Of a stretch of 64,000 nt of DNA, positions 1,746-62,979 are shown piece after piece; positions within the stretch are counted from its first letter, which is position 1; each line of letters begins with the position of its first letter. The translations under genes were made by a program, and so were the position numbers. The stretch is from sequence record MW748999.1; one strand, written 5' to 3'. The notes under the pieces were generated by a model, which saw nothing but the letters and a program-made list of their open reading frames with translations, was not told the DNA's origin and ran no database searches. This DNA comes from Escherichia phage vB_EcoM_Skers.

Positions 1746-1776
1746 AATATAATCCTCTCTTTGTTTCGATGTTTGT

Positions 1777-1804
1777 ATTATACACTGTTGCGTTACGCTG
1801 TCAA
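1777..1804 (-). promoter_or_regulatory. sigma70-type early promoter TTGACA-N16-TATAAT
   Basis: Minus strand reads GTTGACAGCGTAACGCAACAGTGTATAATACAAACATCGAAACAAAGAGAGGATTATATTATG; -35 at 1799-1804, -10 at 1777-1782. Confidence 0.7.
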
Positions 1805-2971
1805 CTCTTTTTCAAAAGATTTTACGATATACATGATAGTGCTCAATTCAGACGGCGCTACTGTCTCTGTCCAGCCATCCGGCATATCTTCTTTCGAGAT
1901 ATAGGAAGTTTTACCTTTCATCGCTTCCTTGATTTTGTTTTCTAATTCTAAGATCTTTTGACCATCTTGTAAAGTCAATTCATAAAAGATCTCGTGATCG
2001 AACTTTGAAACACGAGATTGGTTTCTCATGCGCTCATGTGTTTCTTTGTTTGTTATTCCAAATTTCACGCCAACAAAGGAATCATTGTTGGTTAATTTCT
2101 GTATATAAAGAGTTCCTGTCTTTAATGCCTGATAACCATGCTTAGAACACAACGGGCAGCGTGTTCCGCGATTAACAAAATTATCAATAGTTACAACCCA
2201 TTCATGGTTACGTTCGCATGTCAGAAGTATTCTTGTTAATGCACCTTTCCACTTTCCTGAAATCCCAATAAATTTTAGTCTGTTGGTTTCGCATATTTTT
2301 TCAATTTGTTTTAATCGGTCACTTTTTGTTATTGGTGCTGTTCCGCTACATTTGTGACACCGACGACCTAGTTTGAACTTATCATAACTTTGTTCGTAAA
2401 TGTGATTATTAGGACACTCAAATTTAAGTTTAGTTTTTGTTCCTTTCCATTCCCCAATTATACCCAAAAATTTATAATCTCCTTTATTTTCATTTATATA
2501 AGATAAGGAATCTTCTTTATCATACATCTTGCCACCGTTACATAAAGGACATCTTGTTTTTTGATGAATGAAATCTGTATATGTTGGTTGGTATGTGTGT
2601 CCGTTTGCACAGTTCATAATGAGTCTTGTTCTGCTATTTTTATACTCCCCACCAACAAAACCAACAAATACATCGTTTGTTTCTTGTTTTATTCTTTCTA
2701 TCACATGGTTTAGGTTTAATCTTTGAGAATCAACCACACATTTCTTACACGAAACTTTTTTCCTGATATTTGCTAGAGTTGATGTGTATTCATGCTTGTT
2801 ATTACATAATATAAGAGCTTTTGTTTTGAGACCAGACCATTCTCCAACAAACCCCATGAAAGAATAACCAACTTCCAAACATGAATTTTTTACAACATTT
2901 TCCCAATAGAAGGGAGTTTTCGTGTTTCCTTTTATTTCTATACGAATCTCATGTGCTTGACGTACTAACAT
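1793..2971 (-). CDS. putative GIY-YIG (T5orf172-like) nuclease with four N-terminal zinc-ribbon repeats; possible selfish/homing gene
   Basis: Four repeats of FVGEW.G.KTK...C...H.Y...C.xC; C-terminal GTLYIQKLTNNDSFVGVKFGITNKETHERMRNQ resembles the GIY-YIG core of I-TevI; start set at second ATG (2971) which has SD AAGGAGG, track start 3010. Confidence 0.55.
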   Translation of the reverse strand: MLVRQAHEIRIEIKGNTKTPFYWENVVKNSCLEVGYSFMGFVGEWSGLKTKALILCNNKHEYTSTLANIRKKVSCKKCVVDSQRLNLNHVIERIKQETNDVFVGFVGGEYKNSRTRLIMNCANGHTYQPTYTDFIHQKTRCPLCNGGKMYDKEDSLSYINENKGDYKFLGIIGEWKGTKTKLKFECPNNHIYEQSYDKFKLGRRCHKCSGTAPITKSDRLKQIEKICETNRLKFIGISGKWKGALTRILLTCERNHEWVVTIDNFVNRGTRCPLCSKHGYQALKTGTLYIQKLTNNDSFVGVKFGITNKETHERMRNQSRVSKFDHEIFYELTLQDGQKILELENKIKEAMKGKTSYISKEDMPDGWTETVAPSELSTIMYIVKSFEKELTA

Positions 2972-3001
2972 AATTTTATCCTCCTTTGTTTCGATGTTTG
3001 T

Positions 3002-3029
3002 ATTATACATCCTAACATCAGCATGTCAA
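3002..3029 (-). promoter_or_regulatory. sigma70-type early promoter TTGACA-N16-TATAAT (second copy of the 1777-1804 cassette)
   Basis: Minus strand GTTGACATGCTGATGTTAGGATGTATAATACAAACATCGAAACAAAGGAGGATAAAATTATG; shares about 33 bp with the 1746-1790 cassette. Confidence 0.7.
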
Positions 3030-3051
3030 CACCTTTTTCATAAAAATTTAG

Positions 3052-3081
3052 GCAATAAAAAAGCCTCCCCGAAGGGAGGCT
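3052..3081 (-). terminator. rho-independent terminator downstream of gene 32
   Basis: Minus-strand RNA AGCCUCCC-UUCG-GGGAGGCU followed by UUUUUUAUU; 8-bp GC-rich stem with UUCG tetraloop. Confidence 0.8.
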
Positions 3082-3091
3082 GTAAAATTCA

Positions 3092-4066
3092 TTACATCGC
3101 TAACAGAGAATCCAGGTCATCCAGATCAGAAGCGGAGGAAGTACCGCCACCCAGATCCAGAGATGCCATCAGGTCATCAGCGGAAGAATCTAACGCCGTG
3201 CTAGCTGCGTTAATACCAACTACAGTGCTAGCTGCGGTCATACCAGAATCGAATGCATTCATCTGTGCGTCAAAATCGTCAAGCTGGCTGTTAATCGCTG
3301 CCGCAGCACTGGAAGCCGCAGCACCAGCTACCATAGAAACGCCCATAGTTTTCTTAAATTTGGTTTCCAGTTCATCGAACGGTTTAAACTGGCTAGGCGC
3401 TACAATCTCACTCAGATCAACCATGTTTTCCATCAGATATTTCTGATATGCTTCGTCTTCAATTTTCGGAAGCTGTGATTGCTGCATGAAACGAGAATCA
3501 TCATAGTTCTGGTGTTTATCAACCTTCTTAGCTTTCAGGAGGAAGTTAGCACCAGAGAACACACAAGTTACATCGACCGGAACTTCGCCCATATCGGTAT
3601 TCACGTTCACCATTGCAACGATCTTATCATAAATTTTCTGACCGAAGCGGAATTTGAATACCTTACCTTCATTTTCTGGTGCTTGAGGATCTTTCAGTAC
3701 CAGAATGTTTGCGTAGTAAGACGCTTTACGCTTAATCAGTTGCCATTCGGTTTTATCGGTATTGTACAAGTCTTTTTCGTTAATATATTTGCACACAGGG
3801 CAAGAATCAAAATCACCGTGGGTGCTGGAGCAGTTTTCCCAATACCATTTGCCATTAACTTTGAAGGAATGGTTTACCAGTTTCACAATCGGCAGACCGT
3901 CTTCTGTCTTAGACGGCAGGAAGCGAATCAGGGCTTCACCGTTACCTGCTGCATCAGTCTTAATCTTCCACTCTTTCGGATCTTCTTTGGAGAAACCGTT
4001 GCCACCTTTCAGTGCGGCCAGTTGAGCTTGCAATTTGGAGCTATCTTGACGACGAAACATGTTCAT
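3092..4066 (-). CDS. 32: single-stranded DNA-binding protein gp32
   Basis: Strong match to T4 gp32 by recall ([25 protein letters not shown], zinc site [10 protein letters not shown], acidic Ala/Ser/Asp-rich C-terminus); SD AAGAGG. Confidence 0.9.
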
Positions 4067-4112: not shown

Positions 4113-4141
4113 ACTATATCAGATACTTAATTGCTTGTCAA
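4113..4141 (-). promoter_or_regulatory. sigma70-type promoter for gene 32 embedded in the 3' end of the upstream HNH gene
   Basis: Minus strand TTGACAAGCAATTAAGTATCTGATATAGT (TTGACA-N17-TATAGT), followed by a 46-nt AT-rich leader and SD AAGAGG. Confidence 0.6.
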
Positions 4142-4723
4142 TACTTTATCAATTATATCTAACAGTTTTGGCTTTCTATTTTCAAATTCTAACATCTCTT
4201 CGGGAGAAATGTCAACTACTTCTGTTTTGTTGAAAAAGTTTGGGTCTATAGCATCAGCAACAAAGTTTCTCGCAAGTGCTGCCGCTTTCTCATGAACATA
4301 TATTCCCAAATATATCAACTTCTTTCTTTCGACCTGAATATTGGCAACATATTTACCATCTCGTTTATAAAGACTAACACCGATATATTCAGACGATCGA
4401 CCTTTCTGTTTACCCATATTTCTTGAGTTTTGTTGCTCGTTCGCATCTCTCAAGTTTTCAATCCGATTATCTGTTATAATTCGGTTAACATGGTCAACGT
4501 ATTTTGGCATGTATCCATGATGCATAAAGAAAATTATTCTATGCTCTTTATGATGTTTACCATCGATACACACCAATCTGTATCCATGACTAGGATTAAC
4601 TCCACCCGCTCTAGATCCGACTTTATGCTTTCGGTTTGTCGATATCTTGCGAATCAGCTTACCGTTATCATATTTAAAGAGTTCATGACAACGAGCATAC
4701 AATTCAGGATCATATGTTTTCAC
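4127..4723 (-). CDS. free-standing HNH homing endonuclease with AP2 DNA-binding domain
   Basis: HNH_3-like HGYRLVCIDGKHHKEHRIIFFMHHG...VDHVNRIITDNRIENL followed by AP2-like SEYIGVSLYKRDGKYVANIQVERKKLIYLGIY; sits between 59 and 32 where T4 carries segG. Confidence 0.75.
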   Translation of the reverse strand: MKTYDPELYARCHELFKYDNGKLIRKISTNRKHKVGSRAGGVNPSHGYRLVCIDGKHHKEHRIIFFMHHGYMPKYVDHVNRIITDNRIENLRDANEQQNSRNMGKQKGRSSEYIGVSLYKRDGKYVANIQVERKKLIYLGIYVHEKAAALARNFVADAIDPNFFNKTEVVDISPEEMLEFENRKPKLLDIIDKVLTSN

Positions 4724-5387
4724 CTTTTAACCTCGATATTTCTTTACACTCTTTAACTACTTTAACAAATAATGCTCTTGCTTTTGCGGCGTCAATAACA
4801 AGTAGTTTCTTGTACGCCTTCATTTTAACACTATAAGTTTGCCAAATCAAGTCTTTGGCTACCTTGTCGTGTTCGTCGATTATATTTAGAAAGCTATCTA
4901 ACAACATAAACGACTCAAACGATATAATCCGATTTTGCAGTAGTTTAAAAATACCGCTTGTTTCGGTTGCGGGATTATATGTAATTAGCTCTTTAAGAGT
5001 AACCCCGCGTTTCTCGGAGAAGTATACCAGACTTTTAATGTCATCGTCAAATCTTGTTGCTGCATCGGTTATCTTTCCTATGTATTCCATATAAAAGCCG
5101 TATGCGTCAACATCAGTGATTTCACCTACCCATGCATCGGTATTGGCTACCAGATTGCTTAGGAATAGGAAGTATAATTCTCTTAGATTGTATTTTTCCG
5201 CTAATTTCGCGAAATAATACTTATCTCTGCGTTTATTGAATGCGGCATCAGATAACCGCATCCTCCAATTATATTTTACGCAATCATAACGCCCGTTCAT
5301 ATGAGCTTTCATCATGCAATATAACATATACACAGATTTAGCATTAATTCGCATATCTGGATCTGGAGGAAGACGGTTTCTGATCAT
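4710..5387 (-). CDS. 59: helicase loader gp59
   Basis: Near-colinear match to T4 gp59 by recall (GKSVYMLYCMMKAHMNGRYD, KYNWRMRLSDAAFNKRRDKY, IISFESFMLLDSFLNIIDEHD). Confidence 0.9.
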   Translation of the reverse strand: MIRNRLPPDPDMRINAKSVYMLYCMMKAHMNGRYDCVKYNWRMRLSDAAFNKRRDKYYFAKLAEKYNLRELYFLFLSNLVANTDAWVGEITDVDAYGFYMEYIGKITDAATRFDDDIKSLVYFSEKRGVTLKELITYNPATETSGIFKLLQNRIISFESFMLLDSFLNIIDEHDKVAKDLIWQTYSVKMKAYKKLLVIDAAKARALFVKVVKECKEISRLKGENI

Positions 5388-14419: not shown

Positions 14420-17400
14420 ATGGCAGATTTAAACAGAATCCAGTTTAAACGCACTAGCGCAGCCGGACGTAAACCGGATGCTGGTACGATGAATCCGGGA
14501 GAGTTGGCAATTAACTTAGCAGACCAATATCTGCTTACAAAAAATGATGGTGGGCAAATTGTTAATTTAAGTTGCCCGCCAGTTTATGACAAGAGCGTAG
14601 ATCGGAAGAGCACACCGTCTGAACTCCAGTCACCGGCTATGATCTCGTTGACCGCCGTGGTCTACACGGCCCTGAACACTCTTTCCTACACGACGCTCTT
14701 CCGATCTGCAGATTTAAACAGAATCCAGTTTAAACGCACTAGCGCAGCCGGACGTAAACCGGATGCTGGTACGATGAATCCGGGAGAGTTGGCAATTAAC
14801 TTAGCAGACCAATATCTGCTTACAAAAAATGATGGTGGGCAAATTGTTAATTTAAGTTGCCCGCCAGTTTATGACAAGAGCGTTAATGTAAAAGGTCGTG
14901 TGGTTGCAGATGACCTTATGTGGAGTAATACCGCAAACTATTTCGATGACCCAACCGCACGGAATCTTGATAAATTCGGTGCATTTCGTACTAATGATAT
15001 GGATGGTCATCTAGCATTGGCTTTGCATATTCCTCATCCTAGCGGTATAAACCATGCTCGTGGGTTGGATTTTACTTATGGTTCTAACGTTGTTCCTACT
15101 GTAAAAACCTATGGTTATAACGCTGATGGTGCATTGGCATATTCATATCGCATGTATCACGAAGGTGATAAGCCTAGTCCGTCAGAATTAAATGTATACA
15201 GCAAACAAGAAGTAGATCGGATGTTCCAGAAGACCATCAACTTTGGTGTAGAAACTGGATGGTTTAAAATTGCTACAGCATTTATTCCGCAAAATGATGG
15301 ACGTAGCTTGAAAATTAGATTGGTTGGTGGAAATGGGTGGAACGTAGGCCAAACGGGACAATGTAATATTATTGAACTTGTTATAAGGACTAGCAACGGT
15401 TCCCCTAAAGGAATTAACTTTGTTGCATATCATCATGTTTCTGGTTACGAAAATCAATTTTGTGCCATTAATACAGGTGATGACACTTATGATATCTATG
15501 CATATTACTACGAATTTACTAATATGGTATTGGCTGAATATCAAGCGTCCAGCGATGTTAATTTAACTGTATTTGATCGACCTGAATATGTAGGCGAAAA
15601 ACCTGTAGCTGATCATATCTATGATGCATATACAATACGCTCCTTTAACAGTTTCAGTAACCGTGGAACATTAAATTTTGCTGGCAACCATCAAGGCCAA
15701 TATGACATTGAGCATATGAACGAACAACCGACAAATGCTAAAAAGATGTTGCGTCGGTTTCGAAGCTCTGCCAGCGCGACAATCTGGCATGAAACCGTTG
15801 ATGACCAGAATTATCGTCTTGCCGCTGGAAGTACAGACTCAAGTCAACAATTATTGTTGTCTACTGGGACTGGTTTGCATATTCGTAGATTGACCATCGA
15901 TGGTGGCTTAGGTTCCGGTTCTAATGCTGGTATTGATATTCGTCGAGGACCAAACGAATCAAGCCATTTTAATTTTATGGATTATCGCACTGGTCAAGAT
16001 GTTCGTAATGGTTGGTTTGGTTTTGGTGATTTGACGACCAAAGATTTTATTTGGTGGAACGATAACGGTCAAAACTCGATAAACTTGATCGAAAACGGTG
16101 AATTACATATTACTGGTGGTAAAGGCCAGAAAATTGTAATGAATAGCGAAGTTGCATTATCTGAAAATGCTCGTTTGGCTGTTAAAGGTGGTAATTATGG
16201 TTTGTTGTTCCGTAATGATGGTGTTAGTTTCCATATACTGACTACTAATTTAAAGGATTCTTTTGGAAATTGGAATAATCGTAGACCATTTAGTTATGAT
16301 TTTGCCGAAGGTGGATTGGATCTAGGTGGTACTGAAACTGCTCGTTGTTTGCATCTGGGGATCGATGGTAGTACCCGCATCGAAGATAACTTAGTTTTCC
16401 GATCTGGGTCGCGTCAATCAATGGACTATATTGAAATGATCCATTGGGGTAACAGTAATACAGGACGCAACAACGTTTTGAGTATGAAAGACTCGAAAGG
16501 ATTCTTGGCTGAATTTGAGCGCACCGGAACCAATAGCATTAAAACTAGATTCTTTGGTGAAACATTCACTGATGGTACATTATACCTAAATCAGATGAAT
16601 AATAGCTCTGAACGATTCTCTATCAATAATTGGGGAAATTCAGAAGTTGGTCGCGCGGCAGTCTTAGAAGTTGGTGATTCTAAAGGTTATCACTTTTATG
16701 CTGAACGCAGGACTGATAATAGTTCTTTGTTCTCTGTTGGTGGTGCTTTGTTTGTGCAGGGACCTTCCGGGATTATTATCAAAAACTCTGCTGGTGCTCG
16801 CCATGTTTGGTTTAAAGATGACGGTGATAATGAAAAGGCTGTTATTTGGGCGACCGATGAAGGTATATTACATCTACGAAATAATCATGATGGTGCATTT
16901 AGTCATCACTTCCAGGGCGCAATGATTAAACTGCAAGGGCGTGTTCCTTATGATGCAGCAAAGGGAATTGTTCGTGGTGAAGTTTCTGGTGGTGCATATG
17001 TTGCATGGAGAGACCGCCCTGCTGGTTTGTTAGTTGACTGCCAGCAAAGTGTTGATAGTGCTCATGCTGTTTGGAAAGCGGTTGATTGGGGGCGTCAATA
17101 TATCGCTGCTATGGACGTTCACTGTCCTGGTGATGGTAATAATACCGCAGCCGCTGTTCTTCATGTTCAGGCTGCTGATTATCAATTCCATGCAAGCGGA
17201 GAATTTCATGCCAGTGGCAACGGAAACTTTAACGATGTGTATATTCGTTCTGACCGTCGCCTTAAAGACAATATAGAAGATTATACTGGAAATGCGTTAA
17301 GTTTGATTGGTAAACTGAAAGTGAAAACTTACGATAAAGTTAAATCTCTTAAGGACCGTGAAATTATCGGTCACGAGATCGGCATTATCGCACAGGATTT

Positions 17401-17602
17401 ACAAGAAATATTACCGGAAGCTGTAAAATCTTCAAAAATTGGCAATCTTGATAATCCAGATGAAATTCTGACAATTTCTAACTCTGCCGTGAATGCTCTT
17501 TTAATTAAGGCTATTCAGGAAATGAGTGAAGAAATTAAAGAATTGAAAACACCTCTCTTTACTAAAATTGCTCGCAAAATTAGTAAATATTTTAAATTCT
17601 AA
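14420..17602 (+). CDS. 37: long tail fibre distal subunit gp37 with C-terminal intramolecular chaperone domain; ORF as given contains a 285-nt in-frame artefact
   Basis: N-terminus MADLNRIQFKRTSAAGRKPDAG..GELAINL matches the gp37 N-terminus; C-terminal YIRSDRRLKDNIEDYTG is the S74-type auto-cleaving chaperone motif; native length likely about 965 aa. Confidence 0.85.
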   Translation: MADLNRIQFKRTSAAGRKPDAGTMNPGELAINLADQYLLTKNDGGQIVNLSCPPVYDKSVDRKSTPSELQSPAMISLTAVVYTALNTLSYTTLFRSADLNRIQFKRTSAAGRKPDAGTMNPGELAINLADQYLLTKNDGGQIVNLSCPPVYDKSVNVKGRVVADDLMWSNTANYFDDPTARNLDKFGAFRTNDMDGHLALALHIPHPSGINHARGLDFTYGSNVVPTVKTYGYNADGALAYSYRMYHEGDKPSPSELNVYSKQEVDRMFQKTINFGVETGWFKIATAFIPQNDGRSLKIRLVGGNGWNVGQTGQCNIIELVIRTSNGSPKGINFVAYHHVSGYENQFCAINTGDDTYDIYAYYYEFTNMVLAEYQASSDVNLTVFDRPEYVGEKPVADHIYDAYTIRSFNSFSNRGTLNFAGNHQGQYDIEHMNEQPTNAKKMLRRFRSSASATIWHETVDDQNYRLAAGSTDSSQQLLLSTGTGLHIRRLTIDGGLGSGSNAGIDIRRGPNESSHFNFMDYRTGQDVRNGWFGFGDLTTKDFIWWNDNGQNSINLIENGELHITGGKGQKIVMNSEVALSENARLAVKGGNYGLLFRNDGVSFHILTTNLKDSFGNWNNRRPFSYDFAEGGLDLGGTETARCLHLGIDGSTRIEDNLVFRSGSRQSMDYIEMIHWGNSNTGRNNVLSMKDSKGFLAEFERTGTNSIKTRFFGETFTDGTLYLNQMNNSSERFSINNWGNSEVGRAAVLEVGDSKGYHFYAERRTDNSSLFSVGGALFVQGPSGIIIKNSAGARHVWFKDDGDNEKAVIWATDEGILHLRNNHDGAFSHHFQGAMIKLQGRVPYDAAKGIVRGEVSGGAYVAWRDRPAGLLVDCQQSVDSAHAVWKAVDWGRQYIAAMDVHCPGDGNNTAAAVLHVQAADYQFHASGEFHASGNGNFNDVYIRSDRRLKDNIEDYTGNALSLIGKLKVKTYDKVKSLKDREIIGHEIGIIAQDLQEILPEAVKSSKIGNLDNPDEILTISNSAVNALLIKAIQEMSEEIKELKTPLFTKIARKISKYFKF
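14423..14883 (+). repeat. perfect 176-bp direct duplication (14423-14598 and 14708-14883) flanking the adapter-derived insert
   Basis: The two copies are base-for-base identical and re-encode gp37 residues 2-60. Confidence 0.9.
14599..14707. other. Illumina adapter-derived sequence (library/assembly artefact)
   Basis: Begins AGATCGGAAGAGCACACCGTCTGAACTCCAGTCAC plus 8-nt index-like CGGCTATG and ATCTCGT; ends ACACTCTTTCCTACACGACGCTCTTCCGATCT; both are adapter sequences with single-base indels. Confidence 0.9.
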
Positions 17603-31277: not shown

Positions 31278-31305
31278 ATTATAGAGAATCTCCCTTGTAT
31301 GTCAA
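31278..31305 (-). promoter_or_regulatory. PeSL-like early promoter immediately downstream of gene 39
   Basis: Minus strand TTGACATACAAGGGAGATTCTCTATAAT with GGGAGA...TCTCCC palindrome. Confidence 0.55.
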
Positions 31306-44795: not shown

Positions 44796-44823
44796 ATTAT
44801 ACACACTTTATCTTAAATGTCAA
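44796..44823 (-). promoter_or_regulatory. strong sigma70-type promoter TTGACA-N16-TGTGTATAAT (extended -10) just downstream of gene 43
   Basis: Minus strand TTGACATTTAAGATAAAGTGTGTATAAT. Confidence 0.65.
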
Positions 44824-49515: not shown

Positions 49516-49543
49516 ATTAAAACGGGGAGTATTTACACTCCCC
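49516..49543 (-). terminator. intercistronic hairpin / attenuator between 45 and 44
   Basis: Minus-strand RNA GGGGAGU-GUAAAU-ACUCCCC followed by GUUUUAAU. Confidence 0.5.
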
Positions 49544-49555
49544 ACAAACATTATA

Positions 49556-50245
49556 TTAGTCGGTGTAGCTGGAGTCAAGGTCACACGCGATCATATAAGA
49601 TACGGTTTCACTTGCCAGCCATACAGCCTTACGGCGAGTGAAGCTCAGTTTGTAATCGCCGAAGTCAGTAGCAACCAGTTTCATGTTATCTTTACGAATA
49701 AAGAAATGGAAGTCGGCGGTTCCGGCATATTCGCCCATGTCAAGACAAAACATCTCATTAGGATTATTTTTGTCAATCTCTTCCCAACCTTTGATCATCA
49801 GACGACCATCAATCGGAAGAAATTCAAGGCGGTCCACTTTAAGCTGATTGCTCATTTTCATAAGCTGTTTCAGATCGTCGTTGCTCAGTTCGTAATCTAC
49901 ATCGCTTGCAGGTGGAGTAACTCGGCCTTTCGGTGATACGATAGCAGCAGCACTAGCACCAGGATAATTAATTTTCAGACGATCATTAGACACACGAATG
50001 TTTCCGGTGCGGTTATCAACCGTAATATCTGCTTCATCGCCTACCAGATTCAGAATACCCAAGAAAGAGTTAAGATCATAGATCCCAATTTCGTGTTCCA
50101 GTTCTTGATTCAGAGTCGCTTCACCATATACAACGTTTGTCATGTTTTTGGTGATCAGGACGTTTCCTTTTTTCAGGATGATACCTGGGTTAATAGCGGA
50201 AAAGTTTTTCAGGGTAGCAATGGTTTCTTTAGTCAGTTTCATCAA
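49556..50245 (-). CDS. 45: sliding clamp gp45
   Basis: 229 aa (T4 228 aa); matches T4 gp45 by recall (ATLKNFSAINPGI, IYDLNSFLGILNLV). Confidence 0.9.
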   Translation of the reverse strand: MMKLTKETIATLKNFSAINPGIILKKGNVLITKNMTNVVYGEATLNQELEHEIGIYDLNSFLGILNLVGDEADITVDNRTGNIRVSNDRLKINYPGASAAAIVSPKGRVTPPASDVDYELSNDDLKQLMKMSNQLKVDRLEFLPIDGRLMIKGWEEIDKNNPNEMFCLDMGEYAGTADFHFFIRKDNMKLVATDFGDYKLSFTRRKAVWLASETVSYMIACDLDSSYTD

Positions 50246-62344: not shown

Positions 62345-62884
62345 TCAAAGATCGCGATATTGTACATTATGAAAATGAGAACTTGCATTACCAATATTGT
62401 AGATAACAAATTCTTCATCCGGCGCTTGCGCTACAAATTGAGTATGAGCAACCGCTACGACTTTAAAAATACGATCCGTGATCTTGTGTTTAATTTCGAC
62501 TCCTACTTCCATAGGAACATATTCATGTGTTTCTGTTTCAGTCGCAAAACAGCCATCTTCTTCATAAGCACGAACAAATCGATCGCAATCAGTACGCTTA
62601 ACAAATTCAAGAGTATACAATTCTCGTGAATTGTCGGTATAGACCAATACAGAATTATTATGATAGCGAATCACATACAGGTTATTATCATCGTCAATTA
62701 CGCAAAAGCTACGGATTCCTTCGCCTTGACTCCAGCAGATATTAACCACCGTTCCTCTAATAAAAAAACTTTCCTTTAAATTAAAACTAGTCAATGTGCT
62801 AGCGTGCATTTTAACAACAACACCATCGCCAATTTCCAGTTTACGAAGTTTAACTTCTTTGCTCAGTACACAAAACATCATCAT
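62345..62884 (-). CDS. hypothetical protein (179 aa)
   Basis: ORF track; SD GAGAGGA; preceded by the promoter-leader cassette. Confidence 0.5.
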   Translation of the reverse strand: MMMFCVLSKEVKLRKLEIGDGVVVKMHASTLTSFNLKESFFIRGTVVNICWSQGEGIRSFCVIDDDNNLYVIRYHNNSVLVYTDNSRELYTLEFVKRTDCDRFVRAYEEDGCFATETETHEYVPMEVGVEIKHKITDRIFKVVAVAHTQFVAQAPDEEFVIYNIGNASSHFHNVQYRDL

Positions 62885-62913
62885 GTTGTCCTCTCGTTGT
62901 TTTCGATGTGAAC

Positions 62914-62941
62914 ATTATACATTAGCTAATCAGGTTGTCAA
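62914..62941 (-). promoter_or_regulatory. early promoter TTGACA-N16-TATAAT with the ACATCGAAAACAA leader (third copy of the cassette)
   Basis: Minus strand TTGACAACCTGATTAGCTAATGTATAATGTTCACATCGAAAACAACGAGAGGACAACATG. Confidence 0.65.
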
Positions 62942-62946
62942 CACCT

Positions 62947-62979
62947 AAAAACGAAAAAGCCGACCCTTTCGGATCGGCT
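62947..62979 (-). terminator. rho-independent terminator downstream of nrdD
   Basis: Minus-strand RNA AGCCGAUCCGAAAGGGUCGGCU followed by UUUUUCGUUUUU. Confidence 0.7.

Follow-up and report, generated by a model that had tools for sequence, protein, structure and literature searches.

A promoter-bounded slot beside gene 32 of Krischvirus phages holding a putative CapR-T5orf172-type homing endonuclease gene

In phages, a group of putative homing endonucleases usually has a CapR region at the N-terminus and a T5orf172 domain at the C-terminus (Netter 2021, bioRxiv 10.1101/2020.11.28.402263; Barth 2023, PMC10448857). Genes of this type from ICP1 and other phages carry the CapR fingers in 1-6 copies, swap domains and are located at genetic exchange boundaries; biochemical support exists for one Glu-dependent nuclease (Netter 2021; Barth 2023, PMC10448857). 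A second described system is the recombination of mobile cassettes at promoter-early stem-loop (PeSL) elements in RB49 and phi1, in which inverse PCR, at loci other than the present one, recovered circles whose junctions lie within PeSLs (Arbiol 2010, PMC2839356; Comeau 2014, PMC4122927). Here we analyzed a stretch of 64,000 nucleotides from Escherichia phage vB_EcoM_Skers (MW748999.1), referred to as the window, with a focus on positions 1746-3081, where an endonuclease-like gene lies between two copies of a promoter-leader cassette. We consider it probable that this gene is a promoter-bounded slot module that combines a homing endonuclease of the CapR-T5orf172 type with PeSL-type cassette exchange. 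The source phage is an RB49-like coliphage of the T4 type, a member of Krischvirus; when the locus was queried with 4 kb of its surroundings, 65 phage records matched at 90-95% identity, almost all of them Krischvirus.

The endonuclease gene (1793-2971, minus strand; 392 aa plus stop) is, based on the list of open reading frames (ORFs), Pfam and PHROG, a putative free-standing homing endonuclease gene. It starts at ATG 2971-2969, 8 nt past AAGGAGGA. A 405-aa reading from 3010 is unlikely because the frame would run through the promoter. The gene is equivalent to RB49 ORF240 and its alleles in Krischvirus, and GEC-3S carries the same 1179-nt gene at 98.6% nucleotide identity, with the RefSeq annotation 'endonuclease'. 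The product matches PHROG 681 ('endonuclease') with an E-value of 3e-100. The Pfam CapR model (PF21817) matches it in four stretches, the best being aa 221-276 (E 2e-28, 98.7 bits versus a cut-off of 24.2), and the related treble-clef model DUF4379 also matches (Pfam, E 2e-11). Self-alignment gives four repeats of ~63 aa with the ligand set C-x3-H-x15/16-C-x2-C. These CapR-type zinc-finger repeats, all on the minus strand, are repeat 1 at aa 18-80 (2732-2920; C56-x3-H60...C75-x2-C78), repeat 2 at aa 84-147 (2531-2722; C121-x3-H125...C141-x2-C144), repeat 3 at aa 150-212 (2336-2524; C186-x3-H190...C205-x2-C208) and repeat 4 at aa 216-278 (2138-2326; C252-x3-H256...C272-x2-C275). An earlier note on this DNA had described four zinc-ribbon-like repeats at the N-terminus, correctly so, because all four repeats found by Pfam and by self-alignment hold a C-x3-H...C-x2-C set.

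The C-terminal part (aa 279-392, 114 aa; 1796-2137, minus strand) is a nuclease-type domain with a GIY-YIG fold, of the T5orf172/MUG113 branch. A word-indexed homolog search with this domain gave only 8 close relatives, and 1.84 billion representatives were therefore searched exhaustively with HMMER, which retrieved 435 homologs (E <= 0.001). In the 156 hit proteins examined, the domain sits C-terminally, behind a median of ~218 residues. In a Pfam scan of 76 proteins (the window protein and 75 homologs), CapR was found in 41, DUF4379 in 36 and DUF723 in 23. With E <= 0.01 the same scan assigned MUG113 to 35 proteins, T5orf172 to 14 and GIY-YIG to 2, and the homologs thus bridge the gap to the Pfam models. 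MUG113, T5orf172 and GIY-YIG are members of the GIY-YIG clan. The GxxY motif in beta1 reads G-T-L-Y289-I, and the second motif, in beta2, reads K303-F-G305; this K-x-G is what we take to be the T5orf172/MUG113 form of 'YIG' in the Pfam consensus. Y289, K303, G305, R314, E344, G366, E369 and T370 are invariant among 66 diverse domain sequences (for Y289, K303 and G305, 66-76 homologs). R314 lies nine residues past G305 and eleven past K303, E344 is in the second helix, and the terminal G-x-T-E-T motif includes E369. Relative to the predicted secondary structure, R314 and E344 are at the positions expected for the catalytic Arg and the metal-binding Glu.

A single-sequence AlphaFold2 (AF2) model of the full protein was unusable (predicted local distance difference test, pLDDT, of 39), and an alignment-based model of the C-terminal domain was used instead. 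This high-confidence model has the GIY-YIG alpha/beta fold (beta1-beta2-alpha1-beta3-alpha2-alpha3) and GIY-YIG structural neighbors. Compared with viral models by Foldseek, it matched 106 phage proteins (E <= 0.001), with names that include 'CapR homology domain-containing', 'GIY-YIG domain-containing', 'homing endonuclease' and 'T5 Orf172'. An hhalign comparison of the family profile with an I-TevI sequence gave no informative alignment, and no paralogues of the nuclease domain were found within the 64-kb window. The GIY-YIG/T5orf172-like segment that the earlier note placed at the C-terminus is thus supported, indirectly, by homologs, fold and conserved residues. Loss of the catalytic Arg/Glu, which the note had named as grounds for refutation, was not seen; R314, E344 and E369 are kept, with equivalences that follow from motif order.

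The two flanking cassettes, both on the minus strand, form a direct repeat, D1 (1759-1812 / 2984-3037), of 54 nt with 78% identity. An exact stretch of 26 nt, TGTATAATACAAACATCGAAACAAAG, comprises the -10 plus the leader; the exact 24-mer occurs 2 times in 64 kb, versus 0.00 expected by chance. Both cassettes have a 12/12 sigma-70 match (TTGACA-N16-TATAAT) followed by an A-rich leader, a Shine-Dalgarno sequence (SD) and ATG. In the upstream cassette (2972-3037), from which the endonuclease gene is predicted to be driven, the -35 is at 3029-3024, the -10 at 3007-3002 after the 16-nt spacer, the leader at 3001-2984 and the SD AAGGAGGA at ~2986-2979. The downstream cassette (1746-1812) is predicted to drive the conserved 109-aa ORF at 1416-1745 and has its -35 at 1804-1799, -10 at 1782-1777, leader at 1776-1759 and SD GAGAGGA at 1759-1753. 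Its -35 falls within the last endonuclease codons (...E-L-T-A-stop), so the 3' end of the gene doubles as part of the next promoter. The window contains 12 consensus early promoters, all on the minus strand, and the leader is common to this pair only. The near-identical promoter-leader-SD cassettes reported in the earlier note are therefore real. The upstream, PeSL-like element has its stem-loop in the gene 32 terminator (3052-3081, hairpin 3062-3081, minus strand; terminator scan), AGCCTCCC-TTCG-GGGAGGCT plus a T-run, with an 8-bp stem (z = -3.3 when folded as DNA). A reading of the leader as a structured RNA element was rejected because the leader is A-rich and unstructured.

The earlier note also placed a third copy of the leader at 62885-62920. 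A third cassette does exist there (62882-62979, minus strand), downstream of an nrdD-like ORF and ahead of a 179-aa ORF of unknown function that it is predicted to drive. It has the same layout, namely a hairpin (62979-62958), GGTGTTGACA-N16-TGTATAAT (-35 at 62941-62936, -10 at 62919-62914), ACATCGAAAACAA (62910-62898) and an SD ahead of the ATG at 62884. As a copy (62885-62941), however, it is partial and only a distant relative. With 2 mismatches allowed the 12-mer was found 14 times versus 10.5 expected, and on its own is no rarer than chance. At three other consensus early promoters on the minus strand (31278-31305, 44796-44823 and 49527-49560), G+C-rich hairpins overlap the -10 or lie directly past it, and these fit PeSL subclasses of Arbiol et al.

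We compared the slot between gene 32 and the conserved 109-aa ORF across 14 related loci. In LF73P4 the slot is empty and a single hybrid cassette remains, with an upstream half of the gene-32 type and an SD half of the ORF239 type. KFS-EC, Makalu_002, E26 and kvi have only an unrelated 109-aa ORFan; the endonuclease gene alone is found in the window, GEC-3S, RB49, Phi1 and JK32; and FL04, Cognac and Makalu_001 carry both genes in tandem, along with three cassettes. The endonuclease is shortened in Sf20 (281 aa) and pseudogenized in MIZ4 (internal stops). The gene is thus not universal in the frd-32 interval, the point on which the earlier note had suggested comparing relatives. At least in part it is present in 28 phage records, versus 65 for the 4-kb neighborhood query; 7 of the 28 have it at full length, ~16 have the nuclease-domain portion only and 4-5 only the last ~100 nt. 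The ORFan is likewise carried by 28 phage records, always in one place and once per genome, and is 97-100% conserved; it has no Pfam or PHROG match (KFS-EC locus, 1504-1833), and its stop codon sits within the -35 hexamer of the next cassette. In MIZ4, the 380-nt 'gap' (locus 1800-2240) ahead of the 182-aa endonuclease annotated there is a degenerate remnant of the 5' part of an allele like that of Sf20, with 66% aa identity to Sf20 residues 1-117. Because this part holds in-frame stops, the MIZ4 copy is a pseudogene.

In every locus compared, the slot boundary lies inside the cassette. The downstream junction of the window aligns to the outer halves of the two cassettes of Makalu_001, with the ORFan module precisely missing, and the hybrid cassette of LF73P4 aligns to outer halves in the same manner. 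Chimeric cassettes are present in kvi, where the 3' end of the ORFan is followed by the spacer that usually follows the endonuclease, and in Cognac, where the 3' end of the endonuclease is followed by a gene-32-type spacer. Excision or insertion of exactly this gene at the cassettes, as proposed in the earlier note, agrees with these cassette-precise boundaries and with the empty LF73P4 slot. The window itself has a mosaic junction at the cassette: the endonuclease matches that of GEC-3S with 98-100% identity, but the ORF adjoining it has 79-84% identity to GEC-3S and 92-93% to Makalu_002/FL04. Such a breakpoint at a gene boundary is consistent with homing and is no proof of it. Within the endonuclease alleles, nuclease-domain DNA is 85-91% identical, with breakpoints that vary in position (105-357 nt from the 3' end); the finger arrays are mutually unalignable as DNA and differ in finger number. 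Separately, the conserved 109-aa ORF has two allele classes (~74% versus 89-100% aa identity to the window), which reassort independently of the slot occupant and thereby point to frequent crossovers at the cassette.

The reading that we favor is as follows. The interval between gene 32 and the frd operon would be a hyperplastic 'slot' in which each gene forms a self-contained early-expression module, consisting of a -10, an A-rich leader, an SD and an ORF whose 3' end runs over the next -35. In the window the slot would hold one such module, the free-standing endonuclease gene, which host RNA polymerase is predicted to transcribe early from the consensus sigma-70 promoter. The four CHCC zinc fingers of CapR type may serve as a modular DNA-recognition array that tethers the C-terminal catalytic domain. 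In a mixed infection the enzyme would cut the genomes of related phages without this allele, and repair by recombination would then copy the endonuclease gene along with flanking markers. Separately, homologous exchange between repeated cassettes would delete, insert or swap whole modules with cassette precision, by the PeSL mechanism. The distribution of the gene is that of a homing endonuclease gene (HEG): it is sporadic among close relatives, occupies a fixed intergenic site beside conserved genes and has degenerate copies. By analogy with the published CapR/T5orf172 genes of ICP1 and other phages, the product is probably a self-promoting site-specific endonuclease, and the inverse PCR published for RB49/phi1 at other loci suggests that cassettes may mediate excision and insertion here as well.

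Several observations weigh against this reading. On its own, the C-terminal 116 aa of the window protein matches MUG113 below threshold (13.8 bits versus a cut-off of 22.3, E 0.09), the T5orf172 and GIY-YIG Pfam models are not listed for it, and NCBIfam has no match for the domain. The canonical second Tyr of GIY-YIG is replaced by Lys (K303), and R314 and E344 are proposed as catalytic from motif order and position rather than from residue-level superposition. No significant match was obtained by Foldseek against the PDB, where SLX1 is among the only entries with a sensible TM-score, and a profile search of PDB sequences found none. The downstream cassette has no stable stem-loop (z = -0.79), just a 3-bp GCG/CGC stem. 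Nuclease activity, a target site, homing and circle-mediated transfer are inferred here. A text search of the supplementary files of Barth 2023, in the part available, found no mention of RB49, GEC-3S, Phi1 or Krischvirus by name; it is because the Krischvirus proteins were not found in these tables that their membership in the CapR-T5orf172 family is put forward here as our own assignment.

An unlikely alternative, and the one that survives best, is a domesticated nuclease that does not home. Its fingers would target foreign DNA (satellite, rival phage or host), or the protein would be a regulator like the CapR of the phage-inducible chromosomal island-like element (PLE), and the patchy distribution would be mere cassette shuffling of an accessory gene. 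The family offers precedents in CapR, a repressor, and Odn, an anti-satellite nuclease, and the unrelated ORFan is exchanged at identical cassette boundaries with no nuclease involved. No target site came to light; among the 14 loci, no polymorphisms of the gene 32 terminator or cassette that track endonuclease presence, and could thus be candidate target sites, were evident by eye. Against domestication, the gene adjoins the essential gene 32, a classic HEG position, and its catalytic-type residues are invariant. The truncated and pseudogenized alleles of Sf20 and MIZ4 are in keeping with the life cycle of a HEG, as are finger arrays that turn over fast beside a conserved nuclease domain.

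We regard as improbable that homing alone causes the polymorphism, with the flanking repeats being two conserved early promoters that have no role in recombination. It is true that early promoters of T4-type phages are strongly conserved, that all 12 consensus promoters of the window share the hexamers and that HEG-driven co-conversion also creates mosaic boundaries. However, for this pair only, the identity continues beyond the -10 through 18 nt of leader, the empty site of LF73P4 is exactly one hybrid cassette, and the ORFan, which is not a nuclease, has the same boundaries. The spacers swapped between cassette types in kvi and Cognac also argue for recombination within the cassettes, and cassette-joined mini-circles have been shown experimentally in RB49/phi1 at other loci. 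Least probable of all is a catalytically dead C-terminal domain on what would be only a multi-finger DNA-binding protein, given that Lys in the second motif is presumably the norm for T5orf172/MUG113 (Pfam consensus), that a T5orf172 nuclease depending on the aligned Glu has already been demonstrated, and that Y289, R314, E344 and E369 are invariant in 66 diverse homologs.

Within the favored combination of homing and cassette exchange, nuclease and cassettes may be coupled, the enzyme cutting in or near the promoter-leader cassette or gene 32 terminator of rival alleles. We hold this to be a long shot. If it were so, nuclease breaks would drive the PeSL-type shuffling of modules, and an arms race among alternative slot occupants would lie behind finger arrays that diversify rapidly beside an unchanging nuclease domain.

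All genes of the frd-gene 59 region are on the minus strand: frd (832-1419), the conserved 109-aa ORF, a homolog of RB49 ORF239 (1416-1745), the endonuclease gene, gene 32 (3092-4066), an HNH-AP2 endonuclease gene (4127-4723) and gene 59 (4710-5387). The HNH-AP2 gene, between gene 59 and gene 32, is a second putative homing endonuclease gene, of the 'IPA-HNH' type. Its product matches HNH_3 (E 2e-11), with AP2 below threshold (23.4 bits versus a cut-off of 33.3). MIZ4, Makalu_002, Cognac and kvi carry the gene at 99-100% identity and E26 at 84%; GEC-3S, RB49, Phi1, KFS-EC, FL04, LF73P4, Sf20 and JK32 lack it. The gene overlaps the 3' end of gene 59 by 14 nt, and a promoter-like site (4141-4113) lies within its own 3' end, ahead of gene 32. 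The Ala/Ser-rich acidic tail of gp32 is encoded in part by a 21-nt near-tandem direct repeat (3198-3245; 90% identity, spacing 27). Elsewhere in the window, a tail-fiber-like ORF (14420-17602, 1060 aa) has a perfect direct duplication of 176 nt (14423-14598 / 14708-14883, plus strand; 285 nt apart), which is in frame at the 5' end of the ORF and repeats the N-terminal ~59 aa; the duplication may be genuine or may stem from the assembly.

Neither the protein family nor repeat-mediated shuffling is new to the literature, and the locus illustrates them cleanly without being a new kind of element. Two aspects are modestly new. The Krischvirus endonuclease appears to join the CapR-T5orf172 family via a divergent MUG113-like domain that standard Pfam thresholds miss, and the frd-32 slot is a complete natural allelic series. 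Neither the slot nor ORF240 is discussed in the main text of Arbiol 2010 (PMC2839356) or Comeau 2014 (PMC4122927). Two published drivers of mosaicism in T4-type phages, homing-type nucleases and PeSL recombination, would thus meet at one place. The allelic series (empty, ORFan, nuclease, tandem, truncated and pseudogene) is found in sequenced, culturable coliphages and is therefore a convenient experimental system, suited to two questions: whether T5orf172-type enzymes home, and how CapR finger arrays encode target specificity.

SegG adjoins gene 32 in T4. The Seg enzymes of T4 and I-TevI have an N-terminal catalytic domain and a C-terminal DNA-binding region, an order that is reversed here; the architecture that the earlier note called inverted is so relative to Seg/Tev, but it is the normal order in the published CapR-T5orf172 family. 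The present endonuclease also differs from Seg and I-TevI in having K-x-G, not Y-x-G, in belonging to another branch of the clan and in a DNA-binding region made of a repeated zinc-finger array. The HNH-AP2 ('IPA-HNH') homing endonucleases are represented across gene 32 by the gene at 4127-4723, which is variably present like the endonuclease gene but has an unrelated fold and is a separate element.

The cassettes resemble PeSL elements and occur in phages of the same genus. Each has an early promoter of sigma-70 consensus with AT-rich sequence upstream of it, and an SD and start codon at its 3' end; the upstream copy also has a terminator-like hairpin. They flank variable ORFs, with indels and replacements whose crossovers fall inside the motif. 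In contrast to described PeSLs, the downstream copy has no stable stem-loop, and the cargo is a nuclease gene, not an ORFan. Compared with the CapR/T5orf172 HEGs, the Krischvirus nuclease domain is divergent, being nearer to the MUG113 than to the T5orf172 hidden Markov model and under Pfam thresholds, and we count the zinc ligands C-x3-H...C-x2-C as a further difference. As in those genes, fingers of the CapR/DUF723 type are arranged N-terminally as 'beads on a string' ahead of a C-terminal domain of the GIY-YIG clan. The gene is likewise variably present, has frameshifted or truncated alleles, lies beside essential genes and at exchange boundaries, and has its finger arrays swapped on a conserved nuclease domain.

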